From positions 989,297 to 1,053,296 of the forward strand of contig CAWHDJ010000018.1 in assembly GCA_963827955.1 (NCBI GenBank): a stretch of DNA of 64,000 nucleotides, read 5' to 3'. The position numbers and the translations under genes were made by a program. This document shows, piece by piece, positions 1 to 64,000 of this stretch. The notes beneath the pieces were generated by a model that saw only the letters and a program-made list of their open reading frames with translations, was not told where the DNA came from and ran no database searches. Within the stretch, counting starts at the first letter, position 1. Each line of letters begins with the position of its first letter. The DNA is from an uncultured delta proteobacterium (GTDB lineage Bacteria > Myxococcota_A > Polyangia > Polyangiales > Polyangiaceae).

Positions 1-127
1 CCTCCAGGACGCCGCCGAAGGGCAGCCGTCCGCGCCCACCGCGCCAACGGAATGGTGGTCGGACAGTAGTTGCAACTGCGCGCCGCCCTCGACGGTTGCG
101 CTTCATGCGACCGCGGAGCTGCCGCCC

Positions 128-998
128 ATGTCGACGGGCACGTTCACGTTCGGCGCGTCGCCACCTGATCCGGGGGCGAAGGCCCTCGCCGACATGGACG
201 AGAACGAGATCCTCTCCGCCCTACTCTACTGCCCTGAGCTGTTCCAGTGCCTGTTCGGCCCCCTGAACTATGATCGGCCGAGGTTCTGGGTGGCGATCGG
301 CCTTCACCGGCGCGACCTGGGCCTGCCCGACGCGGGCAAGCCGGGCGACATCGATGTCCTGCTCGGTCCGATGGTGGGTCGCGCCCCAGACTTCACGCGG
401 CTCGTGGGAGTCGAGGTGAAGGTGCGCCGCGCGAAGCAGGGCGACCCGGGCAACAGCCCCTCGTTCGGCACGAAGCAGGCTCGCGGGCTCCTCGAGCTGG
501 GCTGCGACCGCGCCGCGTTGGTCCACATCGTCGTCGCGCACCAGGTCGCCGACGCGGCCTGGATCCACGGAAGGCGGAGCATCGGGTCGCTCTTCGGTAT
601 GGATCTGACCCGCGCGGTCAGCGCACTCGCGCATGGGACGGCCCCACATCGAGATGCTCGTCTCGGCTACATGGTGGCGGCCTGGGGCCACGCCGCTGGG
701 AAGCTCACCGCTCGCGAGCAGTGCCCTCGTGGTCTACCCGCTCGTCCGCCCGGCCCCCAACCATCGGCACTACTGGCTCGAGTTCCAGAGCGCGAGCGTC
801 AAGGTCCAGCGCGCACTCGGCGATCTTTGGAACACGCGCAATCCACCCGATCACATCATCCGGCACTGCTACCTTTGCGGCCACGTTGTCCCCGTCCCGC
901 GGCGGCGTCCTGCGACGTGCCCCCAGTGCGAGAGGGCGTGGGTTCGGCCGTTCGCGATGCCGCACCCTGAGAACATTCGGCGCCTCGACACGCGGTAG
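128..998 (+). CDS. hypothetical protein: putative PD-(D/E)XK-like nuclease core plus C-terminal CxxC..CxxC zinc-finger. Apparent +1 frame discontinuity at about 640-760 joins ORF 128..970 to ORF 633..998.
   Basis: Frame 2 is protein-like up to '...GKLTAREQ'. Frame 3 is protein-like from '...HRHYWLEFQSASVKVQRALGDLW...HCYLCGH...CPQCERAW'. 'PGDIDVLLGP...VGVEVKV' resembles a D...ExK nuclease motif (inference). Confidence 0.4.
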
Positions 999-1081
999 GG
1001 CCACCCACGCATCCGCAGCATCGAGAGCCCGATCGCTCTGTCGAAGATGGTGGCCGTCCCGGGTGCCGCGTCCTTCGACTG

Positions 1082-1194
1082 GTGCACCGCATGTGAGGTG
1101 GGTTCAAACGGTTGCGCGCGCCTACGAGGGCTCGTCAGCCGCTTCGCCTCCACGATCTGATGCCACCTCACATGCGGTGCACTAGCTAGCTAGC
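1082..1194. terminator. Perfect 20-bp inverted repeat (1082-1101 GTGCACCGCATGTGAGGTGG / 1163-1182 CCACCTCACATGCGGTGCAC) with a 61-nt spacer, followed by palindromic (CTAG)3 at 1182-1193. Lies in the convergent intergenic region; candidate bidirectional terminator or protein-binding site.
   Basis: Read directly from the sequence. Located between convergent CDS 128..998 (+) and 1237..2031 (-). Confidence 0.55.
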
Positions 1195-1236
1195 GATGGT
1201 TCCCAATAGCTGTCGAAGCCGGAAGCTTTTCCTGAC

Positions 1237-2031
1237 TCACACCTCCCGGAACGCCTTGCGGTCGGTACGCCAGGCGTCGATGACGTTGGCCAGCGTCGGG
1301 CTCCCGTCCGCGTTCCACATCTCGGGGTCGCCGTCCCCGGGCGCATAGTCGCACACGAACATCCGGCCGTTCGGGGGGAACACAGTGGCCTTCCAATGAT
1401 TCTCGTCCGCCTGCCGAATCTGGAAGCGGGTCTTGCCACGGGTGGACTCGGTCGCCTGGGTCGCGTGCCCCGTCGCCCGCCTGAACGCGGCGGCGCTGCC
1501 GACCGGCGCGAGGAAGAGCACCCACCGGCCTCGGAGCGTGCTTCCGAACCTGCGCGCTTCGCTCTCGGTCCAGGGCCCGCTGGTCAGCGACACGACGTGC
1601 CGCTTGTCGACCTGCAGGACATACCAGTCGGTCCGGGGGTCGTCGTCGCCGTCGTTGTACTCGTAGACCCGCTCACGCTCCTTGTCGAAGGCGCGCTCCG
1701 TGCCGTCGGGGGCATGGAAGAGGACCCAGGGGACACCGACCTCGGCGTCCGCGAAGTCGCGGGCGTTCGTCTGCGTGACCCAGGGGCCCTCGCCGAGGTC
1801 CTCCGTCGTCCCATCAGAGTGTGTGCGCAGGATGTACCAGCCGCCCGGCACGCCACCCGGCGGCGGAGCTTGCCGGCGCAGCACGTCCGACAGCGCCGAA
1901 GAGGGGTCCACGGATCGGCGCAGACGCGGCACCCTCAGTTCGGGGTGGTAGGCGACGTGGGGGCCCTCCACCCACCCGACACGGTAGAGGCCAGAGGTGA
2001 CCCAGAACCTCGTCGACTTCATGCCAGCCAT
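1237..2031 (-). CDS. hypothetical protein (~265 aa) with an internal duplicated module ('PWVLFHAPDG...' / 'RWVLFLAPVG...')
   Basis: The C-terminal 265 aa of ORF 1237..2346 are protein-like, starting at ATG (MAGMKSTRFW) at 2031. The upstream 105 aa are Arg/Ser-rich and out of character. Confidence 0.5.
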   Translation of the reverse strand: MAGMKSTRFWVTSGLYRVGWVEGPHVAYHPELRVPRLRRSVDPSSALSDVLRRQAPPPGGVPGGWYILRTHSDGTTEDLGEGPWVTQTNARDFADAEVGVPWVLFHAPDGTERAFDKERERVYEYNDGDDDPRTDWYVLQVDKRHVVSLTSGPWTESEARRFGSTLRGRWVLFLAPVGSAAAFRRATGHATQATESTRGKTRFQIRQADENHWKATVFPPNGRMFVCDYAPGDGDPEMWNADGSPTLANVIDAWRTDRKAFREV

Positions 2032-3835: not shown

Positions 3836-3854
3836 GGGATGCTCCTCGTGGCTC

Positions 3855-4454
3855 TCATGTGGGTCCGCACGCGTCGCCGAAGCAGCCGGCGGGCAGGATC
3901 CACGGGTCGATGATGACGGGCTCGTCGAACGTCGTGGAGAGCGCCGCGCGGATGTCCTCCGCACGCATGCCCTCGCCGTGAAGGCCCCCGAACGGGTGGC
4001 CCTGGTTGGCCATCTGGAGGACGCTTCGGTGCCGATCGATGGTCTTCCCGAAACGCTTCTCGTAGTCGGCGATGCGCTGGAACTGCTCCGGGTTCACAGC
4101 ACGGAGGGAAGCCCACTGGTCGGGGCTGCCGAAGATGCAGCCCGCGCACGACACGCGACCCCAGCCGAGGCGGTACGCGGGGTGCGGGTTGACGTGGCAA
4201 TGCTCGATGAGGGCCCAGACCTGCTCGGCCTTCCAGCCGTGTACGGCCCGCCAGCGATTGATCGTCCGCGGGGTTCTTCCGTTCCGCAGGTCGGTGTCAT
4301 CCGCCTCGAACACCGCATAGCTCTGCCGCTTCTTCGACTCCTCGCCGCGCTCACCCGTCAACACCAGCGTTCGCCGATTGTTGAAGCGCTCCTGGTTGCG
4401 CAACGCGGCTCCGGCGACCATGATTTTGACGTTTGCTTCATGATGCACCTCCAT
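3855..4454 (-). CDS. PAPS-reductase (CysH/DndC) family protein, C-terminal portion only; lacks the N-terminal PP-loop
   Basis: 'LTGERGEESKKRQ' fits the G-x-R-x-x-ES-x-x-R family motif, and 'SCAGC' is the C-terminal Cys pair. There is no SGGxDS motif upstream. Only 250 nt separate it from the divergent antiporter gene. Confidence 0.5.
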   Translation of the reverse strand: MEVHHEANVKIMVAGAALRNQERFNNRRTLVLTGERGEESKKRQSYAVFEADDTDLRNGRTPRTINRWRAVHGWKAEQVWALIEHCHVNPHPAYRLGWGRVSCAGCIFGSPDQWASLRAVNPEQFQRIADYEKRFGKTIDRHRSVLQMANQGHPFGGLHGEGMRAEDIRAALSTTFDEPVIIDPWILPAGCFGDACGPT

Positions 4455-4706
4455 CGTGAGGTCGGTTCGGATTGTGGGAAATGCAGCGTCTCGCTCTCCG
4501 CCGTCCCGCTGAGCCAAGGGCAAAGCCCTGGCCGGCCGCTTCCTCGTCGCGCCCTTCCGGCTCTCGTGCGTCCGGTCTTCGGAGACGACGCGGCACGCAG
4601 GCGACCTGGCGCTTGATCGTTCCCTGCCGAGATCCCTTGCCGCCGCGCCGGCGCCGCGGGAACTCCCCCGACCATGAGCGCTCTCTTCCACCTCCGCGAG
4701 TAGCCC

Positions 4707-5957
4707 ATGGGCTCCGCTTCCGATCCCGTCGCCCACCTCGCCCTGGTGCTCGGCCTGCTGCTCCTCGCCGCCCGCCTCTGCGGCGAGCTTGCTGCCCGCG
4801 TGGGCATGCCCCAGGTGCTCGGCGAGCTCCTTGCCGGCGTCGCGCTCCGCCTCCTGCCAGGCGCTTTCTTCGGCGACCTCGGGACAGAGCCGGCCCTCGA
4901 CATGCTCGCCCGCCTCGGCGCGCTCGTGCTTCTCTTCGACGCCGGCCTCGCCCTGAGCGTGCGCGACGTCCTCCGCGTTGGCGGCGCGGCAGTTGGCGTG
5001 GCAGTCCTGGGTACGGTCGGCTCGTTCCTCTTCGGCCTCGGCGCGGTCACCTGGCTCCTTCCCGTCGCCAAGCCGGCCACGCGCGTGTTCCTCGCGGGCG
5101 CGCTCACGGCGACGAGTGTCGGAGTGAGCGCGCGGGTGCTCAAGGACGTCGGCCGGTCCACGCGCACCACGGTCGAGGCGCGCACCATCCTCGGCGCTGC
5201 GGTCATCGACGACGTGATCGGCCTCCTGGTCCTCTCGCTCGTGACCGGCTGGGCCACGAGCGGCGCGCTCGCGGCTTCGGGCGGACTCTCGCTCGCCTTC
5301 CTCATCCTCAAGACCGCCGTCTTCTTCACCGTCCTGCTCACCCTGGGCCCGCGCCTCGTCCCCGGCCTGCTCCGCTTCTCCGCCCGCCTCCGGACGCGGA
5401 GCGCCCTCGTGGTCACGGGCCTCGCACTCTGCTTCCTCCTCGCCTGGGCCGCCGATGCGATTGGCCTCGCTCCCATCGTCGGCGCCTTCACTGCTGGCCT
5501 CGTGCTTGAGGAGGCGCACTGGCGCGCGTTCCTCGACCGGGGCGAGCGTGGGCTCGACCAGGAGGTCGAGCCCCTCAGCGCTTTCCTCGTCCCTCTCTTC
5601 TTCGCTCTCCTCGGCGTGCGCACCGACCTCCGCGCTTTCGTCGACGCTTCCGCCCTCGCCCTCGCGCTTGGTCTCACCCTCGCCGCCGTCCTCGGCAAGC
5701 TCGCATGTGCCCTCGGCGCCGCCCGCGGCTCGAACCGCCTCACCATCGCGTTCGGGATGATGCCGCGCGGAGAGGTCAGCCTCGTCTTCGCGAGCCTGGG
5801 GCTCTCGCTCGGCGACGAGGGTCACAAGATGCTCGACCGGCGAGCCTACTCCGCCCTCGTGATGATGGTGGTGCTGACCACGCTGATCACGCCGCTCGGC
5901 CTGAAGTGGAGCCTCGGGCGGCAGCCCCGCAGCGCGCCGCCGAGTGAGCCTCAGTGA
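4707..5957 (+). CDS. monovalent cation:proton antiporter (CPA1/CPA2 superfamily, Kef/NhaP-like membrane domain)
   Basis: 416-aa polytopic membrane protein with many hydrophobic helices and a fold typical of Na+/H+ or K+/H+ exchangers. The large antisense ORF 3855..6176 opposite it is a shadow ORF. Confidence 0.8.
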   Translation: MGSASDPVAHLALVLGLLLLAARLCGELAARVGMPQVLGELLAGVALRLLPGAFFGDLGTEPALDMLARLGALVLLFDAGLALSVRDVLRVGGAAVGVAVLGTVGSFLFGLGAVTWLLPVAKPATRVFLAGALTATSVGVSARVLKDVGRSTRTTVEARTILGAAVIDDVIGLLVLSLVTGWATSGALAASGGLSLAFLILKTAVFFTVLLTLGPRLVPGLLRFSARLRTRSALVVTGLALCFLLAWAADAIGLAPIVGAFTAGLVLEEAHWRAFLDRGERGLDQEVEPLSAFLVPLFFALLGVRTDLRAFVDASALALALGLTLAAVLGKLACALGAARGSNRLTIAFGMMPRGEVSLVFASLGLSLGDEGHKMLDRRAYSALVMMVVLTTLITPLGLKWSLGRQPRSAPPSEPQ

Positions 5958-6072
5958 CGACTGCACGGGTGAGAGGGCGGCGGGGACTACCGGGAAGGGT
6001 AGCGCAAGCGAGGCCACGAACTCGCCGACTACGGTGTTGACGTGCGCTCCATGATGCACCGCCCTTGCGAGA

Positions 6073-8353
6073 TCAGTGTGCGGCATGGGAATGACCCTTC
6101 CGCGTGTGCTTGAGCTTGATGATCCGGAGTCGCGAGAGCGTCGCGGGGTCAAGCTTGAACCAGAGCGGACGACCATGGCCGCCGCGGTCGCTGGGCTTGA
6201 GCCAGCGCCGGGCGACCCAGTAGCGAACGGTCTCCAGCGAGACGTCGAGCTGTGCGGCGACGGCGCGCAACGAGTACAACCCGTCGGACCGCTGGGGAGG
6301 GGTCACCCACTTCTTCTTGACGTTGAGGTCTTCGAGTCGCGCGATTGTTGCGTCGTCGAGCTTGAACCAGGCGGTGGGCCCTGGACCGCTGCGCGCGCTG
6401 GGGACGAGCCAGCCCCGCGCGACCCAATAGTGCACGGCGCCTGCGCGAACCCCGAGGCGCTTGGCGACCCCTCGGAGAGAGTACAAGCCGTCGGAGCGCT
6501 GGTAGGGCGGAGTGCGCGGTACCGACTCAAGAGCGTGACGTCTCCGAACCCCGTTGACGGCCCCCTCTTGCCACTCGTTGCCGAAGCGACTGCGAAGCCC
6601 TTGACGGTTCAGTTCCTGAGCGATCTGCGCGTTCGTCTTCCCTTGCTTGATGAGGGATTGGATCAGCTCAACAAGTGCGCTCTCGCTCGTTGCATCTCTC
6701 GGAGGCCGCGCGCGTGGGACGGTGAGGTCGGTGACGGCGCCCGTGCGCCAGAGGACCTGGATGCGCGTCAACGGCTGCGGGACGTCGATCGGCGTCAGAG
6801 TGACATGCTGCACGAGCATGCGGAGGAGGTTCTTGCGGTCGGCATGCGTCGTCGTATCCGCGTCCCACACCTGCCGCAGGTCCTTGGCGAGCGCGAGAAT
6901 GCGGGTGCGGTCGGACGCCGAAAGGTCGAGCTTGTCCCGCTGACGCGCCTCCTCGTATTCACGCTCGACGGTATCCAGCTCTTGGAGCTTGGAGTTCCAC
7001 TCGTGCTCCAGGGTGCGCGCGACGACGCGGTTGTCAGGATCCACGGCCTTGTAGCGGCGCTCGGCCAGGCGCGCCTCGTACCGCGCGCGATCGAGGCGAA
7101 GCTTCCACTGCTTGTCGAGCTCCGCCGTCTGCCGCTCCGCCTGACGCACCACCTCCAGACCGAGCTCGATCTCGGGCACGTGCACCGTGTCCAAGAAGAG
7201 CTTGGTGACCGCCTCCTCGATGCGGGGCCCAGAGACCATCCAGCAGACCGGATGGCCGCCGCCGTACCTGAGCGGCGCGCGGCAGTCATAGCTGGGATCA
7301 GCATGGCGGCCGACGTAGCGGACGGTCATCTTGCGCCCGCATCGACCGCAGATCGCCAGGCCCTGCAACAGCGCGGAGCCTCTGCCGGGTGCACCGCGCT
7401 GGTCGGGAGCGCGGCGCGGCGCGTTGCTCTGCAACTTGCGCTGGTTCGCCATGAACTCCTCCCACGAGATGTAGGCCGGGTGGTGGTCGCGAATGCACAC
7501 CGTCCAATCGTCCTGCGCGCGCTTGCGGACGCCGCGGCGCACCTGCCCGTTGATCAGCATCCTGCGCGCCTCGTAGCGGCCGAAGGCGAAGGCGCCGGCG
7601 TAGATCGGGTTCTCCAAGACGCGCAGGACGAAGGCGAGGCGCGGAGCGTGCCAACAACGCTCCTGCGTCGTAGGATCGCGTCCCGGCATCTGAAGGCCGT
7701 GCGCCAAGAAGTAGCGCACCACGCCGCATGCACTTCCATTCAGGCGGAAGCGCTCGAAGAGGAGCCGGATCACGCGTTGAACGTGCTCGTCGGGATCGAA
7801 GCGAGGGGTTTCCTGACCCTCGTCCCAGATGTAGCCCGCCGCCGTCTTGAACCGCAGCGCGCCCCGGCGCGCCTTGCTCAACTTTCCGCCGTGCAGGCGC
7901 AGACGCAGCCAGGTCAACTCGACCTCGCTCATGGTGCCCTTGAGCCCCAGCAACAGCCGGTCATCCGGGTTGCGAGGGGTGAAGACCGACTGCTCGTCGA
8001 GCAGGATCACGTCGGCCAGTCCGCAGAGATCCAGCAGCCGGTACCAGTCCGCGGAGGAGCGTGCGAGGCGCGAAACCTCGAGCGCAAAGATGGCGCCGAC
8101 TCGCCCGTGGGCCGACGTCCTCTGCGAGGCGCTTGAAGCCGTCGCGCCGCTCCGTGCCCGCCGCGCTCTGCCCGAGGTCCTCGTCGATGATCTCAACGCG
8201 CTCCGCGGGCCAACCGAGCTCGATGGCGTGTTGCTTCAGAGCGTACTGGCGCGCGGTCGACTCGGGGTGATTGCGCACCTGCCGCGGGTCGGACTGGCGC
8301 GGGTAGACGACCGCTCGGCGCTCCAGGTGGGTCGACTGGATCTTGTCGTTCAT
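6073..8353 (-). pseudogene. large serine recombinase (integrase), split by a single-base frame discontinuity at about 8105-8115. Carries a tandemly duplicated C-terminal ~60-aa HTH-like module.
   Basis: N-terminus 'AVVYPRQSDPRQ...' gives the Y-x-R-x-S catalytic motif in the frame of ORF 7961..9049. 'VGAIFALEVSRLARS', the recombinase domain, the Zn ribbon 'CGRCGRKMTV...C' and a coiled-coil lie in the frame of ORF 6073..8196. The C-terminus contains 'QRSDGLYSLR.VA..L.V....V.YWVAR.WL.PS' twice. Confidence 0.8.
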
Positions 8354-8802
8354 CACCGGCCTCCTTGTGCGCGCCGGCCCGGACGACCTTGAGCACGAGC
8401 GTCGCCCATGCTCCCAATAGGTCGCGCCGCACGTCCGTCGGTAGCGCGCCCAGTCGAGGTGGATCGGGTCGATCGATCGGGTGCGGTTGCATCCACGGGT
8501 CCGCTCGGGGGCTTGAGGTTGCCTCGTGGAGACTCCTGCGGCGGACGGTGCTGCCGGTCCAGCATGTCGGCGACGGCATCCGCGAGCTCCACCAGTCCAC
8601 GCGCGGACAGCAGAACCTCGCGACCCCCGACCTGTGGCGGTGCCACAGGCGGGCCGCGGTCGGTCCACTCCTCGGGCAGCACGATCATCTCGCGCTTGGA
8701 CCCCTCGATCTGAACGTAGCGGCGCCCGTCCGGCGCGGTGTACGCGTGAAGCAGGACGAACCGGCGTCCTCGGAAAGGATGGATCGGCAGGGTCACCGTC
8801 AC
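8353..8802 (-). CDS. small hypothetical protein immediately upstream of the recombinase and translationally coupled to it (GTGA and ATGA overlaps). Possible recombination directionality factor or accessory protein.
   Basis: 149-aa ORF. The N-terminal 90 aa are protein-like ('MTVTLPIHPFRGRRFVLLHAYTAPDGRRYVQIEG...'). Its stop overlaps the recombinase ATG. Confidence 0.45.
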   Translation of the reverse strand: MTVTLPIHPFRGRRFVLLHAYTAPDGRRYVQIEGSKREMIVLPEEWTDRGPPVAPPQVGGREVLLSARGLVELADAVADMLDRQHRPPQESPRGNLKPPSGPVDATAPDRSTRSTSTGRATDGRAARPIGSMGDARAQGRPGRRAQGGR

Positions 8803-9476
8803 GAAGCGCGAGGACTCGGTGATGTCGGGTGCATTCTCCGACGTGCGTCTTCGTGTAGGCCGAGCACCAGCGCTTCCCGAGGTCGCCCGTCTTCATCGGA
8901 AACTGCCGGCGATAGCCGGGCTTGTCGCTCTCGCCGCCCGCGCGCTCGAGCCCGTACGGAGTCTCGAACAGGTACGCCGCTGTCGGGGTTTGGTCGCGGA
9001 GCATCTCGCCCTCGAACCCGCCCACCTTCCAACTGAAGTAGATGCGCACGCCGAACGCCGCGGCGATTCTGGCGGCAATAGTCTCGCGTGCAGGGCCAAT
9101 CCATCAGCGTCGAGCCCTCACGGCCGTCGACGTCGTGATGCCAGAGCTCGATGCGTTCCTGTGGAACGCCGAGCAGCAGCAGCAAGAGCAGCAGCGCGAG
9201 GGAGTCCTTGCCGCCGCTGAAGGCCACGATGATCACGTCATACGAGAACGGGTCGACCGCGGGCTTGCTCGGCGTCGGTGCGAAGGCGACGTGACTCGGT
9301 GCGAACGCGAAGCGCTGCCACGGAAGCGGAGGGGGCGCATCACGTGCGAGCGGGCGCGACGACCGCAGGGCGCGGTCGGAAGAGGCTTCTGCAGTCGCTG
9401 CTCGCAGAAGGGCCCCGAGCGCGGACATCCGGCCCTGGTTGGGGGCAACGGAGACGGGCGCATCGAGGGCCGTCAT
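8799..9476 (-). CDS. PAPS-reductase family PP-loop ATP-pyrophosphatase (DndC/CysH-like), paralog B. Frame discontinuity near 9060; the 3' end is uncertain.
   Basis: 'VIIVAFSGGKDSLALL' is a PP-loop. The protein continues in another frame as 'FGVRIYFSWKVGGFEGEM...GLERAGGESDKPGYRRQF...KRWCS' (the R-x-x-ES motif). The ATG at 9476 overlaps the stop of the upstream gene. Confidence 0.55.
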   Translation of the reverse strand: MTALDAPVSVAPNQGRMSALGALLRAATAEASSDRALRSSRPLARDAPPPLPWQRFAFAPSHVAFAPTPSKPAVDPFSYDVIIVAFSGGKDSLALLLLLLLLGVPQERIELWHHDVDGREGSTLMDWPCTRDYCRQNRRGVRRAHLLQLEGGRVRGRDAPRPNPDSGVPVRDSVRARARGRRERQARLSPAVSDEDGRPREALVLGLHEDARRRMHPTSPSPRAS

Positions 9477-10495
9477 GAAGCCTCCTCGCTCACATACGAA
9501 GTGGCCGGGAGCCAGTCGCACCCCGTTGCCTTCGTGGCGCGCTCTGCCCGGCCGCACACCGGACACGGCATGCGCCGAGGGCGGTAGGGGGTCTCGATGT
9601 AGACGGCCAAGGGCGGCGCGCGGTAGCTGCCGTCGGGGAGCGTCCTGAACCCCATGATGGACAACTTCTTCCCGGCCTTCGTCGGCGGCTTGTTCGCCTC
9701 GAGCGCGGCCGTGCGCGCGAAGTCCCGGGGCAGCTCCCGCGCGAACGTCTGCCAGTCGCCGCGCGAGCCGTACGGGCAGAAGGTGCACGCGCTCTTCCGG
9801 GGCACGGGGAAGCCGAGGCGCTCGATGAGCGCTTGGCCCCGGCAGCGACACAGGTTCCGCTCGATCAACGGGAAACGGTTGTGGCGTCGGGCTTGGCCGG
9901 GCCGCTGTGCGCGTCGCCCGCCGGCGTTGGGGTCGTACGCCGCCCGCCCTTCCTCCGCTGCGTCGAACCCCACCCAGACCTCCACGTCGAGGCCGGAGAA
10001 GCGGTCGTCCATCCACCGCTCGAACCGCTCCACCTTGCCGACGATGGTGCAAATGCGGTCGGGGCCCGAGACGGGGATCTGGCGGCGCTCCTCCAGCCAG
10101 GCAAAGAGGGAGCGGCTTTCCCGCACGGGGTAGCTCGTGGTGTCGAGCGTCAGGAACTCGATGCCCTGGGCGGCGCAGAGCGGCTCGACGATCTCCCGGA
10201 TGTGGCTGTATGTGCCCGGCCACTCGCCCGGGTCGCGGCGCGCGGCATCGCCCACGTCGACGAACACGCAGACGTCGGGCGGCTCTCTCTGCTCGATGGC
10301 GTCGAGCAGCATCGCGAAGCTGTCGAGGCCCCCACCGTAGGAAAGCACACGGGGGCGCCGTGGTGCTGGCGCGCTCGCCGCTCGCAGCAGAGCCCCGAGC
10401 GCGGACGGGGAGTGCTGGCCTTCCGCGCTCGCCGCCCGCAACAGAGCGCCGAGCGCGGACGGCTGTGCGCGCGCGGCGCCAGGCACGGCGCTCAT
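9473..10495 (-). CDS. PAPS-reductase family PP-loop protein, paralog A. Its N-terminus carries two copies of the 'SALGALLRAASA' peptide.
   Basis: 'VLSYGGGLDSFAMLL' is a PP-loop. Several Cys motifs are present (CRCRG, CTFCPY, CPVCG). The ATG at 10495 overlaps the methyltransferase stop (ATGA). Confidence 0.6.
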   Translation of the reverse strand: MSAVPGAARAQPSALGALLRAASAEGQHSPSALGALLRAASAPAPRRPRVLSYGGGLDSFAMLLDAIEQREPPDVCVFVDVGDAARRDPGEWPGTYSHIREIVEPLCAAQGIEFLTLDTTSYPVRESRSLFAWLEERRQIPVSGPDRICTIVGKVERFERWMDDRFSGLDVEVWVGFDAAEEGRAAYDPNAGGRRAQRPGQARRHNRFPLIERNLCRCRGQALIERLGFPVPRKSACTFCPYGSRGDWQTFARELPRDFARTAALEANKPPTKAGKKLSIMGFRTLPDGSYRAPPLAVYIETPYRPRRMPCPVCGRAERATKATGCDWLPATSYVSEEAS

Positions 10496-11265
10496 GCCGC
10501 ACTGCTCACACGCGGGCGGATCGCGCTCCGCGCCGGTGGCGTCAGGAGCCGGGCCTCTACCGCCACGCGGCACCAGTGGGGGACGATGTCCACGGCGATG
10601 CAGCGCAGGCCCATCGCCCGGCAGACCGTCAGCTCCGGCCCCGTGCCGAGATACGGCACGACGACGACGTCCCCCCGCCGGAGCTTCGCCCTCTCGCGGA
10701 ACACCCACTCGACGAGCGCTACCGGCTTCTGCGTCGGTCCGAGGTGCGCCACGCCCGTCTCGCTTGCGCGTGCGACGCCGCGCCAGAGATGCGTGAAGCG
10801 ACGGATGGGGGTGCGGAGGTTGGTCCACGCCAACTCACCGTCACCGCCGTCGTTGCTGCCCGTTTCGGCGCGCTTGTCCCAGAAGAGCCACCCGCGCTGG
10901 TCGGGGAGCCGGCTCGCATAGTGGTTGGCGCCCCAGAGCACGATCCGAGGGAAGTGGAGAAGGTGCGACGGGTCGAACGGACGATCGTTGCCAGCCATCG
11001 GAGGCCAATCGTTCGCGCGCGGCCTGCCTCGGCCGCCGACCAGCCGGCCCCCGCGCCCGCGCCGAGCGCCGTCGAACCGCTGGCGGGGATCGAACGGCGG
11101 GTCCGCATGGACCAGCGCCACGTCCTCGGGCCGGAGGCCGAGGGCGCGGAGCCGTCGCGGAACGACCTCGCGGCAGTCGCCGGCGTGCACTTCGATGTCG
11201 CCGTCGTTGTAGACGAGCCCCGCCTCGGCCCGCGCAGCGCGAAGCCGCGCGGCGAGGCCGGACAC
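10492..11265 (-). CDS. beta-class N6-adenine/N4-cytosine DNA methyltransferase (CcrM/M.PvuII-like arrangement)
   Basis: Motif order is 'VALVHADPPFD' (DPPY/F), then 'GPTQKPVALVEWV' (HPTQKP-like), then 'VVVPYLGTGPELTVCRAMG' (FxGxG-like). A GTG start with an AAGGTGG RBS lies just after the TAA of the upstream gene. Confidence 0.75.
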   Translation of the reverse strand: MSGLAARLRAARAEAGLVYNDGDIEVHAGDCREVVPRRLRALGLRPEDVALVHADPPFDPRQRFDGARRGRGGRLVGGRGRPRANDWPPMAGNDRPFDPSHLLHFPRIVLWGANHYASRLPDQRGWLFWDKRAETGSNDGGDGELAWTNLRTPIRRFTHLWRGVARASETGVAHLGPTQKPVALVEWVFRERAKLRRGDVVVVPYLGTGPELTVCRAMGLRCIAVDIVPHWCRVAVEARLLTPPARSAIRPRVSSAA

Positions 11266-11281
11266 GCGCCCGGCGCCCACC

Positions 11282-12404
11282 TTACGCCTTGCCCTTCTTC
11301 GCGAGCATCGCGAGCAGCTCCTCGACGATCGGGCGGCTCTCGGCGATCCATTGCACCAGGCTGCGCCGCATCTCACGCGTACCGCCCTTCTCGAGCCGCA
11401 CGCGGGTGTCTTCGACGTCGAGCGACATTTCGCCCGAATTCACGGGCCACGGCGCGGCCGGCAGCTTGGCGAGGAGTGCGCGAGCACGTCCTACGGCGTC
11501 CTTCGACGTCGCCGCCGCGGGCGTCGCCTTGTTGCTGGCCATGGACGCGTACCGCAGGCCCAGGGCCAGGGCGAGGCGGCCATTGAAGCTCAGGTCGCCG
11601 CTCGGGATGCCGGCTTGGTCGAGCATCTGCTCCGCAGACTGCTCGCTGCCCCGCCGCTTCCAGAGCTCCTCCGCGTCGTCCCGCGCCTTCCACCGTTTGC
11701 GAAACCCCGCAGCCCATTCTTCGTGCGTGCGAACGGACCGTGCCGCGTTCGCTTGGATGGCCGGCACCGCCTCGCCGGCGCGGTGCAGCCGCACCCGCAG
11801 CGCCCCCGCGAGACGAGCGCGGAGGTTGAGCCCTTCGCGCGCCACGCCGGCCTCGTCGAGGATCGCGTGCAGCCGCTCTTCCAGCACCGGGCACTGCCCG
11901 TCGACCTCGGGCTCGTCGGGGTAGTCTGGCGCCGGCATCGCCGGCATCGCCGGCGTCGCTGGCGTCGCCGGGGGCGCCGCGCTCTCTTTGGCTGCATGCA
12001 GCAGCGCCGAGAGCGGCGACGGAGCGGCCCCACCGACGGCCACATCCGGCGCCGGCGCCGCGGCGCGCTCAAGGGGGAGCGCCGCGGACGAGAGGACGGT
12101 CCCGCCTTCACCCCGCGGGCAGAGAGCAGCCTCGGCCGGCGTGAGGCTCTCGCTCTCCGGCCGGAGCTCGATCTCGTGGGCGTCATCGAGCGAGAGGAGC
12201 GCGCCGTGGATCGCGTCGAGGTCGAAGCCCTTGGCGATCAGCGCGCGCACCACGTCCGGGATCCGCACGACGAGCGAACGGGGATCCGCCTGGCGCCGCA
12301 GCTCGGCGAGGACGGGGAGCCGGGTTGGGCGTGCCCAGGTCACGGCCGGAGGCCCTCGTGGTCGAGATCCACGGCGTTCGCGATGAGAGGGCGGCGGCGG
12401 TTCA
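11282..12404 (-). CDS. hypothetical protein with an internal 'SPLSALLHAAKESAAP' motif. Apparent frame discontinuity near its 5' end; a likely ATG overlaps the stop of the giant gene.
   Basis: Protein-like from 'VTWARPTRLPVLAELRRQ...'. An alternative ATG-initiated frame ('MNRRRPLIANAVDLDHEGLRP') overlaps the TGA of the upstream gene. Confidence 0.45.
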
Positions 12405-15400
12405 TTTCGGGACGACCGTGCAGATCGTGGCCGGCTCACCCTGGCTGTTGACCCCTTCGCGCACGATGGTCGCGACGACCTCGGTCTTGACCTTGCCCCC
12501 CTTCGTCTTGACCTTGATCCTCTCGCCGGGCGTGGGGGCAGGTCCCTCGACCGCGATCCCCCATTTGTTGTAGCCGAGGCTCTTGTACTCCGCGAAGGGT
12601 CGCTCCACGGGCGTAGACGTGGCCCTCCCTGCTGCCGCAGAACCGGCCCGGCCCGGAGCGAGGTCCCCGAGGCCCATGGCGTCGAGCAGCGCGTTGACCA
12701 CGTGCGCCTGCCCGCGGACGGTGTAGGTCATGCCGACCCGTTTGGCGGAACCCTCCGGGTCGAAGATGACGCGGCCGTCGGGCGTCTGAAGCTCGTAACG
12801 GCCCAGCACCATCTGCATCGAGTTGCCGGGCAGCGCGCGGGCGGCGTCCTTGAAGACATCGTCGGCGAACACCATGTCGGACACGACTCGGACGTGCTCT
12901 GCGCCGGCTCGCGCGGGCGCCGGCGCCGGCCGCGGCACGAGGTCGCCCATGCCGAGCGCCTCCATCGTCGCGGCGAGCCCCTTGCCGTAGATCCAGTGAG
13001 AGACCCCGGATTGACCAGGAAACTCGACGCCGCGCATCCGGTCAAACTCGATGTCGCCCTGCGGGGTCACGACGGAGAACGCACCCAGCTCCAGCTCCTT
13101 GACCGTGTTGCCCGGCATGTCGCGAAGGATGCGGAGGAACTGCGTGTCGCCGTACAGCTTCTCGCCGCGGCGCTGGACGTGCTTCCTGAACTCGTCGGTG
13201 GGCTCCTCGGCGCGCCGCGGCAGGCTGTTCTCGTCGGGCTCCTCGAGACGCGGCGCCGGGGGCGTGCCCCCCACGTTGACCGGGGGCGTGGCGGGCCGGC
13301 GCACGATGACCGAGGGTTGGACGCCCGCGGCGGGCGCCGTAGAGCGGTCTACCCGGATGGTCGCGATGAAGGCGTCGAGCGCCGCTCTCACGTCTGCATC
13401 GCTCTTGCCTTGTGCGACAGCGGTCTTCGCGACGGCGGCGATCCGAGGCGTGTCCAGCAGGTTGACCTGCACGCCTTGCAGCGCGGCTTGAGCGAGGCGG
13501 TTCGCGCGCCTCTCCTCCGCCGCGGAGAGCGCCGTGCGCCGCGCGCCGCCCGCCTCCCCCCGCTCGGGTGCGGTAGGCGCGGTCGGCGCCGCCGAGATGA
13601 CCTCGTGGTGCGGATTGCGGAGGCGCGTGATGACCTCGTGGAGCGCGTCCCTGAACAGGTCGGTCGAGACGGCGCCGGGGGAGGTGACGGCCGCCTCCAA
13701 CTGTTTGATCGCCGCCTCGACGTCGGGGACCACCAGCGTGTTGCCCTCCATCGCCCCCGGAAGGAAACGCGCGACCGCCGCACGCTGCACGGTGCTCAGT
13801 CCCTCCAGCCTGGTCCCCGCGCCCGCACGTACCGCCGCAGAAGCCGCGGGCTCAGGCCCCCCACCAACGCGTGCCGCGACAGGGGCAGCGGGCGCCGAGC
13901 GCCGAGCGGCGGCGCTGGGTCCCGTCTCGTCCGCGTCCGTCTCGCCGGCCTCCTCCCTGCCGGTCTCCGCCTCGCCGGTCTCCGCCCCGCCGGTCTCCGC
14001 CTCGCCGGCCTCCGCTCCGCCAGCCTCCGCCTCGCCGGCCTCGGCTCCGTCGGTCTCCGCCTCGCCGGCCTCCGCTCCGCCGACCTCAACCTCGCCAGCG
14101 TCCTTCTTCTTCTTCGCCTTCAGCAAGGCAGCCCTGGCAGCCTTCTGCTCGGCCGTCGCGCCGGAGAGCAGATCGGACGGCAAGCCCAGGGCCCACCAGT
14201 ACCGGGCGCACGCCAACAGCGCGCCGTAGGAAGCATCCGAGATCGGCGCGAGCGCCAAGAACTCTTCGTAGCCGGCCCGGGTGGGCGGGAGGATCGCGTC
14301 GAGCCGCTGTTTCACGCCGACGGTGAGCACGCCGCCGCGAACACCGGGAACCTCGAGCTTGTCGGCGTCGAGGGTGAAGCGGTCTTGGAGGTCGTTTAGA
14401 TGGGACGTGATGTCGGCGCCGTAGCGGGCCCACATCTTCGTGACCCACTCGTCGGTCGCATCCACCCAGTTCAGCTCCCGCAGGACCTTCTCGGTGGTCG
14501 TGGAGAGATGACGCGCGAGCTTGGGCAGGATCTCCCCCCGCATGACCCCGTCCATGCGCACCTCATCGTCCGCCGGCCAGTCGCTCGCGTCCGTGATGCG
14601 GTGCTCGGGGAGCAGGTGCAGCTCGCCGATCTGGGCGAGCCTGACGACGCGCCACTCCACCTGACCGACCGACCGAGCGCCGATGGTGTAGCCGTCGCGG
14701 ACCCTGCCGTACTCGTCGAAATTGAGCACGCGGTGGTCGCGATCGTCAGGGCTCTTGGTGCGCAGTCCCTCGTAGAGAGGCGCGACGGCCTTCTCGTAGA
14801 CCTTGACCAGCTCGGAGGTCCCGCTGGGGGTCTCCCTGTTCTCGGTCTTCGACGTGGGCACGAAGACCAGCATCGTGTGGTCGCGCGCCGCTTGGGCCCA
14901 CTCTCCCCAGGGCCATACCTTGGGGTCGACCCGGGAGACGTCGGCCAGGCGCAGCTCGCCTTCGGCCCGGAGGCGATTGGCCCTCCCAAGCTGCTGCTCG
15001 GCTTCTCGCGGTGCGTTGCCGCATCGGTCGAATTGTGGCGTTCCGGCTTCCGGTTGGGCCTCGGCCCATTCGGCGGGCAGGTTGAGCAGCTCCCCGACCT
15101 TGAGCGGCTTCCACGCCGGCTCGTGCTTCTTCTTCCTCTTCCGCGGGTTCACGCGGTCGAGCTCCTCCTCCCAGTTGTCGCGGTGGTAGGCCCCGAGCTT
15201 TCTCGCGATCGACACCTTGCTGTCCCCGGGCCTTACCCGGTACAGCGCTTGCTCTTCCGTCTTCTTCTCCTGCTGCTGCCTGGTGCCCTGGGCCTCGATG
15301 CCGGGCCGGTCCGCGGCGCGTGCCATGCTGAAGAAGAACCCCGCCGTGCGGAGCGTCGCCGAAGCATTCGCAGCGGTCTTCGCGTCCTGCTCGGCCTTTC

Positions 15401-18400
15401 TCTTGGCCTCCACCGCCGCGAAGAGGAGCCGCGCCTTGACGGGATCGCACGCGATCATCGCGAGGATCTCTTCCGGCCCCATGTTCATTTGCGCGCCGGG
15501 GTTGTTGGTCTCGCGCGCTTGCCCCTCGATGAGGTCCGCCATCCAGGCCCGCTTGCCCTGGATGAGCGTAAACTTCATGGAGTCCGGGAAGCACTTCATC
15601 ATGAAGTAGTAGATTTCGACCCGGGAGAACTGGTTTCCCTGTCGCCAGGCGCGGCCATTTCGCTGCTGAAGCGTCGCAGGGTCCCAGGGCAGGTCCACGT
15701 GATAGACGCGGCACGTGCGCCTCTGGAGGTTGATGCCTTCATACGCCACCTGATTCGCGATCACGACGTCGTACTTCGGCTCCACGGCGGGGAACGTGGT
15801 CGGCATACCCGTCGCCGGATCCAAAAACGTGAGCTCGGGCGTGCCGTTGAAGTCGGCGGCGATCCGCTGGCGCGCGTCCGCCGAATGCTCGGGGTTGTGG
15901 GGGTCGGCGTTGAGGATGGCGATGCGGGACCTGTCGATGCCCGCTTCCTCGAGCACCATGCGGAGCCACACGTGCGCCGCGATGCTCTCGACGAAGACGA
16001 TATGGCCGCAATCGGGTCGCTCCAGGATCAGGTCCCGTACGGCCCGGAACTTCGGGCTGCTTGGAGAGCGGACGCTCTCCGCGTTCTCCCAATTCCAGAG
16101 CGCCTCGAACACCGGGGCGCCGGTATCCTTGTCCACGCCGACTTGCTTGCGGTCGTCCAGGTTCGCGTGGATACCGACGAGCCCGAGCAGCGCCAGCAAG
16201 CCGAGCGGGTTGCCCAGCTTGGGGTTCGCGAGCATCGCCTCGATCCTCTTCGCGTAGTCGAGGCGCTTGCGCTCCTGCTCGTCGTCGCCGACGACCTGAA
16301 TCTGGCGCGAGATCGGCTTCGGGAGCTTGAGCCCCTCGTCGAGGCCGATGGCGAGCGGGTAGCCCATGCGATCGCACACGTTGCCGAGCAGATCGAGCCA
16401 CGTCCTGCCGTCCCCGAGCCGGTGCTGCGCGAGGGCCACGTTGCGCGCTGCCGCCTTGAGCCTGGGAGTCTCGTCCTCGGGCGGCTGGAGGGCGTTGCCC
16501 TCCGAATCCGGTGTCTCCTCCGGGACGAGGCCCCGTGCGGCCTGGATGCCCTTCTCGACGTCGACGGAGGCCCAGCCCCATACCCGAGCGATTCCGTCGA
16601 CCGATCGTCCCTGCTTGTCGGTGAGCTCCAGCCACGCCGCGTGCCGCACCGGCGCGCCGGCCTTCTCCACGTCCTCTGCGGTCTCAAATTCGCCGTACCA
16701 GAAGATGGTGTCGCGCAGCTCGTGCAGGTTCATGAACCCCACGCAGGCGGATGCCGTCTTGGCGTTGCCCACCATGTCGACGACGATCTTCGTCTCAAGG
16801 CGGCAGTAGCGGTCGATGAACTGCTCGGGGTCCTCGATACCCTGACGCGCGAAGGCGTCGTGGGCGATGTACTGAATGAGGTTGTAGAACTCGAGCGGCG
16901 AATTTTTCGCGGGCGTTGCGGAGAGGAGCACCACGCCCGCGCCGCCGGAGCGCCGGCGCACGGTCATGGCACGGAAATCAAGCTGCCACGCGCGGTTGGA
17001 GCCCTCGCCCGCCGCCCCCATAAATTTCGGCACGCCGAATTCTCGCGGCGCGGGCAGATAGAGATTTTTGTAATTCTGCGCTTCGTCGACGATCAAGAGG
17101 TCGACGCCGAGCTGGTCCCAGGTGAGCCCCGGGTCGAACCTCTGGCCCTTGGGGAGTTGGAGCTTGCTCGCGACCCACCCCGCCGTGCTCTCCTTGAGCA
17201 CGACCTCCTCGCGCTCCGTCAGGCCGTCGTCGCTGCGCTCGTCCTCATCCTCCTCGTCAACCTCGACCTCGCCGCCGGGGCCGATCTTGCCGCCGATCTC
17301 GGTGTCCTTACCGCTGGTGCGGCCGGGGTGCTTCGCGGCGTTCCTGCGGCGGAGCACCAGATTCCGCTGGATCGCGGCGGTCTGCTCGACGTAGTCGACG
17401 ATGTCCCCCGCGACATCTTCGTGCGGATGAACGACGAGTACGTGACCAACATGACGTCGAACTCGCCGGCTTGGAACCTCGTCCACTTTTCGGCGCGCTC
17501 TTCGGGCGTGTCGGTCTCGCTGGTGTGTTTGCCGGTGTTGCGACCCGTGGAAATGACCTTGCGATTGGCCCCGATGACGCCGACCCGGTAGTCCGGGAGC
17601 GCCAGCGCAAGCTCCGCGACCCAGTTCCACACGATGCTGTTGGGGACGACGATCACGGGCCGCTTCGCCCAGCCTTCTTGGCGCGCTGCCGCGAGGATGG
17701 CGGCGCCCGTGTACGTCTTGCCGACCCCCACATCGAACGCGACGAGGCCGCCGCGGTTCGCCACGACACGCCGCGCGCCCGCGTTCTGGTGGGGCCTCAG
17801 CGTGACGCGGTTTCCCCACCGCGCGAGGGGCAGCGGGTCGATCGCGTAGCGCTTGGGCTTGTACCCCTGGAAGGCCCGCTGGTAGGCCCGTTCGATGATC
17901 TGCTTGCGACCTTCCGTGGCCGAGCACCAGGCTTTGAACGACTTGTTCCAGGCGTCGGCCTGCTCGACACGGATGTTGTCGATGTTGTCGTCCTTGTTCT
18001 TCTTCTGCGGGCGGAACAGGCTGCGGTCGTGGTTAATCCAGCCGAGGACGTTGCCGACGTCGTCCTGCCAACCTCCCTCGATGTCCTCGTAGTCCTTGCC
18101 GACTTCCTTGACGAGGCCATCCACGCGCTCCAGGCGCACCGTCCCGACCTTCGCCAGCGTCTCGATCCAACACTCGACGAGTTGGAGCGGGATCCACGCC
18201 TGCTGGGGGGAGAAGGAGTCCTTCGTGATGTCGTCGAAAAATGCCGGCTTGATGACGTCCAGAAGCCGCGCAACTTGGTCCGCGGCCTGCTCGTCCCCAG
18301 CGTCCGCGCGCTCCTTCGCGCGGTCGTGCTTGTCCCAAAGGTCGCCGGCGAAGTAGTCCTCGGGCGGCACGAGCTCGCCGGGACGGTCCTCGCACCAGCC

Positions 18401-40593: not shown

Positions 40594-40625
40594 GCGGGCA
40601 CCCGACTCGGATACCCTGCGCGCCG

Positions 40626-41660: not shown

Positions 41661-41717
41661 GCGAATTTCTCCTTCCGCCCGATCAGAGTGGCCCCCGCCG
41701 GACAAGAAGAGCGTGAG

Positions 41718-46344: not shown

Positions 46345-46347
46345 ACG

Positions 46348-46593: not shown

Positions 46594-46603
46594 CTGCTGA
46601 CCG

Positions 46604-47071: not shown

Positions 47072-47286
47072 AAGCTCGCACGTCCGAACCCGCCCGAAGG
47101 AGAACCCGTCGAGGGAACGTCGCCGTGGTCGATGACCTCGACGCCCGCAACGTCACCGCCTTGAGGGATCCCCGCTCAAGGGGGAACTTGCGCGCGCCAT
47201 GGTACCGAAGCTGCCACGCTCCAGAGCGCGATCCGCACGCCGGGAGGCGCGTCAACCATGGCGCGCCACTCGCAAGAGCCCGCGAC

Positions 47287-47808: not shown

Positions 47809-47823
47809 GGTCAAGCTCAATCC

Positions 47824-48408: not shown

Positions 48409-48533
48409 AGGACGTGCGACGTTGAGCCGGGGCGACCGACCCCCGACGGGCCGGACGAGCAGCTCGCTGGCCGGCGGGAATCAAGGGGCACCTCTCTGCC
48501 GCCGCACGGGAGCCGAGCCGCGCCTCTCGCGGG

Positions 48534-49050
48534 TCACTTGGCGGACCCCTTCGCGTTGATCACCTCGAGCCGCTGGCGTACCGCGGCTCGCAGCGCCTCC
48601 ACCGAAGAGAACGGCTTGTCGATGCAGGGCGCCCCGGTCCGTTCGAGGAACGTCTTCGAGGCGTCCGTGTATGCGCCGCCCGTCATGAAAGCGATCCTGT
48701 TTCGCATCGGCGCGGGCGCGATGGTGTCGACGTGCTCGTAGAAGTCCGCTCCTGTCACGGCGGGAAGCATCAGAATCGCAGAGGATAAGGTCAAAGCGCT
48801 CCCCCTGCCCGAGGAGCTGCAAGGCGTCCGCGGCGCTCGTTAGCACGACGACATCGTGCTCCGACGTGAGCGCACGCCGAATCATGTTTCCCAGGTACAC
48901 GTCATCATCGATCACAAGAACACGCGCACGTTTCTCCACGATGCTTCCTTTCTGCGAGTAGGCCGTGGCGAGGGCATCGATCGCCATCGCTAGCGCCGTG
49001 ATGTTCGAAGCGAGCGCGCCGACGCGGCTCGCGAGGTGCGCGACCGCCAT
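48534..49050 (-). CDS. response-regulator receiver (CheY-like) domain protein. Frame discontinuity at about 48790.
   Basis: 'RVLVIDDDVYLGNMIRRAL...FDLILCDS' and, in another frame, 'LMLPAVTGADFYEHVDT...RIAFMTGGAY...CIDKPFSSVEALRAAV' give the full receiver signature. Confidence 0.6.
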
Positions 49051-62298: not shown

Positions 62299-62404
62299 CG
62301 CCGCTCCATGCCGACTGTGCGATGGCGAGCAAGACGCTCGACTTCACCAACCCCGCGAGCCCGACGGCGTGCATGATGTGATCCACGAGAGGAGCCCATC
62401 GCCC

Positions 62405-62725
62405 ATGAAGTCCACGCAGACGTGCCCCAAGTGTGCCGGCCGAAAGTTCGCGACGATCGACGAATTTCAGATCCCCGATCTACGGGATCGTGCCGAGCGC
62501 GCGGCGCATGGAGTTCCAGCCGTCACCATCGAATCGAAGCCGGACCGATGGGGGAAAACGAGCGCTACAACGGTCGGATCCCTCGAGCAGTGGATCTGCA
62601 TGGGATGTGGCTACACCGAATTTTACACGCGCGACCTCGAAATGGTCGCGGAAGCCGCCCGGCAGTTTCCCCACCGCGTGCGCGTTGTGGATGCCGGGCC
62701 GCACAAGCAGGGCCCGTTCCGCTGA
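62405..62725 (+). CDS. small Zn-ribbon protein, paralog 2
   Basis: 'CPKCAGRKF...CMGCGYTEFY', with the C-terminus '..VVDAGPHKQGPFR' matching '..IVDAEPRRQGPYR'. Confidence 0.55.
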   Translation: MKSTQTCPKCAGRKFATIDEFQIPDLRDRAERAAHGVPAVTIESKPDRWGKTSATTVGSLEQWICMGCGYTEFYTRDLEMVAEAARQFPHRVRVVDAGPHKQGPFR

Positions 62726-62849
62726 CGCGCGCATGTCGGTGTGATGTGGCGCTGCGTGCCCGGGGTTAAGGAACGAGTATCGACGATGCAGCGCTCACGC
62801 ACCCTCCCAGCGACGTCCGTCAGCCTCGACTCTCGCGCCCCTCTTGCAG

Positions 62850-62900
62850 GGGCCCAGGCCCAGGGTGCTGGGACTTCGACACGAATGCCGCGTGCATGTG
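62850..62900 (+). repeat. ~50-bp remnant matching the 3' end of the Gly-rich lipoprotein genes (encodes '...QGCWDFDTNAACM*'). Vestige of a third module copy.
   Basis: Nucleotides 62862-62900 align with 62253-62298 and 59833-59873. Confidence 0.5.
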
Positions 62901-63174
62901 ACGGCGCTCCGGACCAGCCACCCGCGCGGACGCAAGGACGTCGATTTCGTGCGCACTTCATCAAGTCGACGGACACCGGGAGGGGCCCTACCTGCGGTTG
63001 TCAAACACCTTCCACACCCAAATACCGGACACCCGTGTCGCCTGACGCGGGTGGCGTGAGATCACCGCGGGCTGCCTGACGCCGTCCATCCCAAGGGGGC
63101 CGGTGTGTATGCCCCTCGCCGCCGGGTGTGGGGCGTTGGGTCGGCGGCGGTGATCTCACACCTCGCGCTGCCGA

Positions 63175-64000
63175 TCAGCTCAGCGGCACGACGTGGGCAA
63201 CGATGGTGCGCACAGCCTCCTGGCGTTCGCGGTAGGGCACGCGGTGCGTCGCGTGGACGCGGCGGGCAACGGCGTCGAGGAGGGGCGCGGGGGCGTCCTT
63301 CGCGTGGGTGTTAATCTCGTCGGCGATGGCGAGCAGCCAGAGGAGCCGGTCGATGCGGCGATCGGCGGCCAGGGCGAGATCGACGAAGCGGAGCACGCGT
63401 TCGCGGACGTCGGGCACGTCGGCGCGAGCGGCGTCTCGCGCGCGGACGAGCGGCGCGAGCATGTGGTCGCGGGCGTGGAGACGGGCGCGGAGCAGGTCCT
63501 CGGCGATGGCGATGCCTTCGCGCTCGTCACCGAGGCTGCGGACAATGCCGAGCAGGTAACGGGCGTCGACACCGGGAGGCAACGTGCCGGCACGACGCTT
63601 GCCAGTGAAGATGGCGAGGCCATCTACGATGACGTCAAGCGGGTAGCGTGCGATCGCAAGGCGGAGATGTTCTTCCGGGTCGAGCAGGGCGAGGCGCTGG
63701 AAGGCTTCGTCGAGAAGCGTGCGGACGCGGGGGTCCTGACGCGCACTCGCGGTGCTGCGCGCCAGCTCCTGCTTCTTGCGACGCTCCTCGAGCGCGGCGC
63801 GGGCGGCATCGATCTGCTCGGCGGTGACGGGCTCGTTGTAGAGCTCGACACGGGAGCGCCCGCCGCGATCAGCGCGGGGCCGGTGGTTGAGCGTGCGCGC
63901 CCAGGTCTGAGCGACGAGCTTGAGGGCCTGGGCGGCAAGCTTATGCGGGGTCGTGCCGCGTAGGTCGAGCGCGGGTACTGCCTGCCGAAAGAGGCCAAAT
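63175..64000 (-). CDS. hypothetical protein, 5'-partial (open to the window edge)
   Basis: The minus-strand frame is open and protein-like from 64000 down to the stop at 63175 ('...ELYNEPVTAEQIDAARAALEERRKKQELARS...'). The plus-strand ORF 63193..63963 is its antisense shadow. Confidence 0.45.
   Translation of the reverse strand, partial: FGLFRQAVPALDLRGTTPHKLAAQALKLVAQTWARTLNHRPRADRGGRSRVELYNEPVTAEQIDAARAALEERRKKQELARSTASARQDPRVRTLLDEAFQRLALLDPEEHLRLAIARYPLDVIVDGLAIFTGKRRAGTLPPGVDARYLLGIVRSLGDEREGIAIAEDLLRARLHARDHMLAPLVRARDAARADVPDVRERVLRFVDLALAADRRIDRLLWLLAIADEINTHAKDAPAPLLDAVARRVHATHRVPYRERQEAVRTIVAHVVPLS

Follow-up and report, generated by a model that had tools for sequence, protein, structure and literature searches.

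Single-base frame breaks in a 64-kb myxobacterial window are probably consensus errors of a long-read assembly rather than marks of a decaying mobile element

Several genes in a high-GC myxobacterial stretch of 64 kb (the window, by which we mean the whole of the DNA that was analysed) are interrupted by single-base frame breaks, and we asked whether these breaks belong to the deposited assembly or to a mobile element that is decaying in its host. The initial annotation of the window had counted at least 11 frame discontinuities. Six of these eleven sites were confirmed at the sequence level through homologues that are intact, through a paralogue or through domains that the repair restored, namely those in a large serine recombinase (~8111), PAPS-reductase paralogue B (~9088), a giant methylase/SNF2 gene (~17405), a cell-wall hydrolase (~32530), Cys-rich paralogue 1 (~39908) and a response regulator (~48775). 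Three others are probable, and one, at 11282, is a stop/start overlap. The analysis shows that the breaks are present in the sequence, that each amounts to one base, and that the genes they hit have no other damage. As to their cause, we put the probability that they are single-base consensus errors of the deposited long-read assembly, rather than lesions of a decaying element, at roughly 60%.

Results

The recombinase gene runs on the minus strand from 8353 to 6073 and is broken at 8105-8116, where the window carries one extra base (GGCCC versus GGCC in the homologue). In a tblastn comparison with L081, an intact homologue of 761 amino acids (P0002/L081) matched the window in frame -1 as far as 8111 and in frame -2 from 8112 onwards, and the DNA alignment to L081, at 77% identity, had one surplus window base at this point (GTCGG-CCAC versus GTCGGCCCAC). 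The Resolvase domain in the downstream frame begins only at model position 61, and the protein 3' of the break is 72% identical to P0002. The same DNA alignment contains a second 1-nt insertion in the window, at ~9088, and this one lies in PAPS-reductase paralogue B (9080-9092, minus strand), in the N-terminal half of the gene, about 9400 to 8849. Here the extra base falls in TGCACGCGAGACT, which is no homopolymer. After repair, paralogue B gave one contiguous match to phrog_424, and over the 3.2 kb that align with L081 (window 9284 to 6083) all remaining indels are multiples of three. The recombinase cassette was also seen to interrupt a PAPS-reductase gene.

The giant methylase/SNF2 gene (23242 to 12402, minus strand) encodes 3613 amino acids once repaired, and its break at 17400-17413 consists of one G that is absent from a G5 run. 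SNF2 motif I is found in the upstream frame and motifs II and III in the downstream frame; a repaired segment of 418 amino acids aligned by tblastn as one uninterrupted stretch, covering 87-99% of its length, with plasmid SNF2/helicase genes in 1032 records. At 11270-11300 on the same strand, which had been read as a frameshift in the 11282 gene, the stop of the gene from 12439 to 11282 overlaps the start of a DNA methylase gene (about 11290 to 10492). Since this methylase is complete in one frame, in which residues 55-277 match phrog_67 without a shift, the site is an ordinary overlap and not a frameshift. Frame changes at 8843, 9480, 11282 and 23265 were all rejected as breaks, being ordinary gene boundaries.

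The endolysin-like/SpoIID hydrolase gene (33630 to 31626, minus strand) has one extra base in GAATCCCGTG, at 32521-32538. Its homologues P0123, P0129 and P0132 cross the junction unbroken, reading ...GDGAVWDRDSQDPTHGGKGHIGRV..., and tblastn with L082 placed the frame switch at 32533-32549. The frame past the break is 56% identical to P0123, and the phrog_21825 endolysin match extends over the repaired junction. An exhaustive HMMER search found 838 homologues of the hydrolase part, so that the word-indexed protein search with two chimeric queries, which returned a self-hit only for one and nothing for the other, has to be read as a weak negative; the amidase-like domain was not recognised by Pfam or PDB. 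The gene for Cys-rich secreted paralogue 1 (about 39430 to 40600, plus strand) carries one extra base at 39902-39914. With one base removed it is colinear with paralogue 2 (about 40630-41660), which is intact; the two are 49% identical, and the conservation extends to either side of the junction. In the response regulator gene (49050 to 48534, minus strand) the break at 48767-48780 is one extra T in GATTCTG. Deletion of this T extended the Response_reg coverage from model positions 1-51 to positions 1-110 of 111, and the score rose from 20 bits to 48 bits.

Codon statistics point to four more probable breaks, one of them beyond the original list. In the gene at 128-998 (plus strand) the probable lesion lies within 609-660 and consists either in the fusion of two frames or in the loss of the first ORF's stop: codon usage switches frame at about 620-650, the second frame has an ATG at 633, and the only homologue, a Sphingomonas plasmid protein of 178 amino acids, covers the N-terminal domain only. 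The added candidate is a frame change at ~2030-2080 (within 1990-2080) in the minus-strand gene from 2770 to 1240, where the coding score of the upstream frame is gone at about 2050-2080, the frame stays open for 60 codons more, and the downstream ATG shares bases with a third-frame TGA (ATGA). No homologue of this gene was found in PHROGs, Pfam or the metagenome scan. The 45012 gene is probably broken at its 3' end (46060-46108, plus strand), where a similar third-frame TGA overlaps an ATG at 46099; the frame of this gene continues for 170 codons over two downstream genes, and the source's own gene call for it, P0121 (486 aa), extends to 46616. In the 47824 gene, which probably has one extra base at 48214-48230 (plus strand), the codon-usage score favours frame +0 before about 48212 and frame +1 after it. 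A low-sensitivity word-indexed protein search, PHROGs, Pfam and the metagenome scan yielded no homologue of this gene, and the repaired 128-998, 2770-1240 and 47824 proteins remained blank in PHROGs and Pfam. The 44332 site (44300-44465, plus strand) gave three weak frame signals and a possible minus-strand ORF, and no homologues were found for it.

All lesions are single-base indels, with one per gene and no second hit in any of them. No nonsense codons, truncations, deletions or IS insertions were seen in the broken genes, and the frames 3' of the breaks, which are still conserved, stay open over lengths from hundreds of codons to 1,670. Once repaired, the genes could be aligned from one end to the other. 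The density is ~10 breaks per 64 kb, or about one per 5-6 kb. Within the genes the breaks are spread over mid-gene positions, at 11-62% of gene length, as would be expected without selection, and we counted this spread for assembly error. A possible excess of insertions was dropped as evidence, because the sites at ~2030 and ~46100, with their ATGA overlaps, may be -1 lesions; if they are counted as such, the ratio of insertions to deletions is roughly 7:3.

The initial annotation had favoured homopolymer indels as the cause of the breaks and had seen them reach housekeeping-type genes. The first of these points was not borne out. The window contains 34 runs of at least 6 bases and 153 runs of 5, and only one of the 6-7 localised sites, the G5 of the giant gene, lies in a run of at least 5, the others being in runs of 1-3 or in none. 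None of the 34 longer runs is broken, and the nine runs of 7 bases are all in frame. The second point is not clearly borne out. All breaks fall within the first 49 kb, where the integrated element occupies about 1-36 kb and lineage-specific genes lie next to it at 37-49 kb, and the conserved genes at 50-62 kb (a PP2C phosphatase, two Ser/Thr kinases and a sigma-factor operon) are all intact. If breaks arose at a uniform rate, 50-64 kb would escape them with a probability of about 0.06-0.18. The response regulator is the sole signalling gene that is broken, and it stands beside a cluster of genes that had no relatives in the searches.

The window's own proteins had no exact match on record. Two metagenome scans and one viral scan returned no relatives, and plasmids and phages had no megablast match to 9.4-34 kb. 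Among genome contigs no relative of the PP2C phosphatase exceeded 42% identity, and consequently there was no orthologous locus for comparison.

Discussion

The source of the window is an unannotated NCBI/ENA record, a contig of 1,783,973 bp with no Logan short-read copy, and its own gene calls P0001, P0121 and P0122 are truncated. We counted the unannotated state, the megabase contig and the missing short-read copy towards an unpolished long-read genome bin. Most likely the record is a Polyangia-like metagenome-assembled genome that was put together from long reads and not polished with short reads. Modest coverage, or collapsed strain variants of the accessory region, could have made the consensus gain or lose one base, and each such error would divide one otherwise intact gene into two frames. 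The broken genes would be functional in the organism and would need to be re-called after polishing. In this account the sequencing platform, the coverage and the origin of the errors in consensus calling are what we infer. A comparable break density is reported for low-coverage nanopore bins, and bins below 40-fold coverage require polishing (PMC9262707); in soil nanopore assemblies only 57-70% of proteins are full-length (PMC13087279), and large nanopore-only catalogues with a single Medaka polishing round exist (PMC12313526). The window is similar to known long-read frameshift artefacts (the IDEEL-type truncated-protein problem; PMC9262707, PMC13087279) in that single-base indels split intact genes at a density of the order of 10 per 100 kb, in a megabase contig from an unannotated source with no short-read counterpart. 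It is unlike them in that its breaks show no concentration in long homopolymers and its conserved third is unbroken. Long-read errors usually cluster in long homopolymers, and we counted both the lack of such enrichment and the break-free block at 50-62 kb against an artefact.

These two observations also fit a possible, on balance doubtful, alternative: a genuine and recent pseudogenisation of the accessory region, in which the element and the genes at 37-49 kb lost selection and took one frameshift each. The recombinase would then be dead, and the cassette and the island would be fixed in place. The restriction of the breaks to island and lineage-specific genes, their position mostly outside long homopolymers, and the intact state of homologous elements elsewhere (L081, L082, P0123), which would make the lesions derived in this lineage, are all in agreement with this; intact counterparts are L081/P0002 for the recombinase, P0123, P0129, P0132 and L082 for the hydrolase, and the plasmid SNF2 genes. 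In addition, a broken recombinase beside a PAPS-reductase gene that is broken and already split is consistent with an order of events, a coherent story of decay that we counted against an artefact. The single-hit pseudogenes of degenerating prophages, integrative elements and recently restricted bacteria likewise have intact homologues elsewhere, lesions in accessory DNA and an inactivated recombinase, but the window differs from them in its lack of nonsense codons, deletions, IS insertions and second hits and in its fully constrained downstream sequence. With 6-10 frameshifts and a substitution-to-indel ratio of 10:1, neutral decay predicts about 2-4 nonsense codons; there are none, which has a probability of 0.03-0.17 under that expectation. 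No relaxation is visible downstream of the breaks either, where the frames are open, identities are 56-72% and indels are in-frame only. For ~15-20% of genes to carry a single hit each, constraint would have to have been lost very recently and in all of them at once, and the provenance of the record suggests an unpolished genome bin. The conditional statement of the initial annotation, that the recombinase and the hydrolase would be pseudogenes if the lesions were real, is correct: the recombinase would lack the catalytic 81 residues at its N terminus, and the hydrolase would be severed between its Cys and His motifs.

Full-length proteins might also be made despite real breaks, through programmed ribosomal frameshifting, transcriptional slippage or repeat phase variation. 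This reading is largely refuted and we regard it as very improbable, although five of the six firmly localised sites require a +1 shift and the site in the giant methylase gene is a G run. As in the programmed +1/-1 frameshifting of prfB, dnaX and IS3-family transposases, a full protein needs two frames to be joined; unlike in those systems, the shifts in the window are not conserved in homologues and affect unrelated genes with no shared slippery site. The homologues of the recombinase, the hydrolase, the SNF2 segment and the response-regulator domain read through these places in a single frame, the context differs at every site with no common slippery or stimulatory motif, and the zero frame runs on for tens of codons past the breaks without a stop. 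Phase-variable loci switch at a long simple repeat, of at least about 7 bases, whereas the longest run at any site here is G5, too short to be efficient. That the breaks are both real and tolerated, with many genes expressed through +1 recoding without a known slippery motif or an island reversibly switched off by single-base changes, is hardly credible.

Consensus error in a long-read assembly, the cause that had been favoured from the outset, is still the likeliest explanation for lesions that are single-base, limited to one per gene and followed by open and conserved frames. The matter is chiefly one of data quality. Were the breaks real after all, the island would be a freshly immobilised element, which is an ordinary finding. 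If they are artefacts, ~1 gene in 6 of the record is mis-called, and a correction restricted to homopolymers would miss most of the errors, as the breaks are not confined to such runs. The recombinase, the hydrolase, the giant methylase/helicase and the response regulator would then all be intact in this organism.

Frame breaks supported by homologues, a paralogue, or domains

Because of the high G+C content of the window (~70%, with GC3 at ~0.85-0.9), long open frames turn up on either strand and also in wrong frames. Coding frames were mapped from the GC3 phase together with a self-trained codon model and frame-aware Viterbi decoding, and each same-strand frame change was then checked against domains, homologues, or paralogues. 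No close genome was found in the species-representative collection (best match of the PP2C phosphatase, 42%), and relatives of the recombinase came from Polyangia (Byssovorax, Sorangium), which makes a myxobacterial host probable. The initial annotation had listed at least 11 frame breaks. Six of these were proven and three more are probable, whereas at site 11282 an ordinary overlap of stop and start precedes an intact methylase and the coding signal at site 44332 is weak.

In the long frame of the recombinase, the Resolvase domain starts only at model position 61, and residues 1-81, including the catalytic serine region, sit in a different frame. The intact homologue P0002 (761 aa, 72% identity), encoded at locus L081 of a JGI metagenome contig, matches the window in frame -1 as far as 8111 and continues in frame -2 from 8112. 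In the DNA alignment of the window with L081 (3.2 kb, 77% identity), the window carried two single extra bases, at ~8112 and ~9088, and every other indel was a multiple of three. The former proves the recombinase break. The latter disrupts PAPS-reductase paralogue B, for which the break is likewise proven, the repaired protein giving one contiguous phrog_424 match.

Paralogue B is also split on the minus strand (3858-9400) into an N-half (9400 to 8849) and a C-half (4424 to 3858) by a 4.4-kb cassette (8848-4425), which carries a DUF5372 gene, the large serine recombinase, and a Na+/H+ exchanger. When the halves were joined in silico, phrog_424 matched without interruption over residues 62-329 (E 1e-31), and the hit to Pfam PAPS_reduct reached across the join. 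Since L081 has the identical N-half/DUF5372/recombinase order and, aside from the two single window bases, in-frame indels, a conserved insertion site is suggested; the cassette is perhaps an excisable gene-interrupting element. Together with 9476-10834 and 28512-29855, the split gene makes three PAPS-reductase-like paralogues in the island, all matching one common part of phrog_424.

The giant gene (3613 aa; Eco57I-like N6 methylase and SNF2 helicase) and the preceding 1742-aa gene, of no known function, occupy 12402-28419 on the minus strand. In the giant gene, a G5 run is short of one G; helicase motif I falls in the frame upstream of it, motifs II/III in the one downstream. The repaired segment (418 aa) gave unbroken alignments with plasmid SNF2/helicase genes in 1032 records, proving the break. 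For the hydrolase, an exhaustive HMMER search returned 838 homologues, many of them crossing the junction, where they read ...GDGAVW.R..QDP..GG.GHIGRV.... Comparison with the protein of a related metagenome element placed the frame change at 32533-32549, and a phage endolysin profile covers the repaired site, so that this break is also proven. A related element, sharing the hydrolase and the N-terminal part of the giant gene, was present on at least 10 metagenome contigs.

Two tandem Cys-rich paralogues with signal peptides and many invariant cysteines lie at 39430-41660 (plus strand), and no family match was found for the pair. Once repaired, paralogue 1 and its intact neighbour are colinear (49% identity), and deleting one T from the response regulator recovers a complete receiver domain; both breaks are proven on these comparisons.

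Probable sites and neighbouring genes

Codon usage makes breaks probable at four sites: within gene 128-998 and the 47824 gene, at the 3' end of the 45012 gene, and at ~2030-2080, which is absent from the initial list. In each, the codon-usage score clearly changes frame while the first frame remains open but non-coding-like; no confirming homologues were found for the genes. A third-frame TGA overlaps the ATG of the downstream ORF as ATGA at 2031-2022 and 46099-46102. As ATGA overlaps are the usual operon junction, the upstream gene has probably lost its stop through a lesion a short way before the overlap; the change at ~2030 and ~46100 may represent loss of that stop rather than fusion.

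At 41688-43040 (plus strand), the frame of an ECF-type sigma factor with regions 2 and 4 runs stop-free into 260 Pro/Ala-rich residues that include a membrane-like segment; the product may be a sigma/anti-sigma fusion, or two genes may not have been separated. For the small-gene cluster at 44000-48560, relatives were not detected in the searches that worked, and the basis for calling it 'orphan' is weak, as the chimeric-query search was unreliable. Within the cluster, an H-C-x-G-x2-C...C-x-C-x-C-x2-C motif is repeated (45.7-46.3 kb), two ribbon-helix-helix-like proteins are encoded (46348-46593 and 46604-47071), and an AEAAYH.AH.A.L.M motif is common to 45018 and 46650. At 63154-63999 (~800 bases), both strands are open with mirror-image codon-position G+C (GC1 0.82, GC2 0.48, GC3 0.81-0.84), and neither strand had a family match.

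Sequencing error versus gene decay

Every lesion is a single base (an extra base in five of the six proven cases, a missing one in the sixth), and no motif common to the sites was found; recoding is a highly improbable cause. The initial annotation favoured assembly errors on account of homopolymers and breaks in housekeeping-type genes, and neither argument held. Runs of five bases number 153 in the window and those of six or seven 34; the latter are free of breaks, and the giant-gene site is the only one in a run of at least five. The conserved block at 50-62 kb (PP2C, two kinases, sigma-factor operon) contains no break either, which has a probability of ~0.06-0.18 under a uniform rate. Both observations speak for real pseudogenes, and a broken recombinase adjoining a broken, already interrupted gene would make a coherent story of decay. 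Against this, each gene carries one lesion, no nonsense codons were seen (~2-4 are expected alongside 6-10 natural frameshifts), there are no deletions or insertions beyond the single bases, and downstream frames remain open and conserved. These features favour assembly errors.

As the statistical arguments are of about equal weight, provenance tips the balance toward error (probability about 0.6), the direction initially proposed, and genuine decay is rather unlikely. The NCBI/ENA record is unannotated, with a 1.78-Mb contig and no short-read copy, traits typical of nanopore-only genome bins, in which low-coverage frameshift truncations are known (PMC9262707, PMC13087279). If the breaks are errors, collapsed strain variants of the accessory island could yield both their uneven spread and their non-homopolymer contexts. 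The frame breaks are chiefly a matter of sequence quality, of little intrinsic interest.
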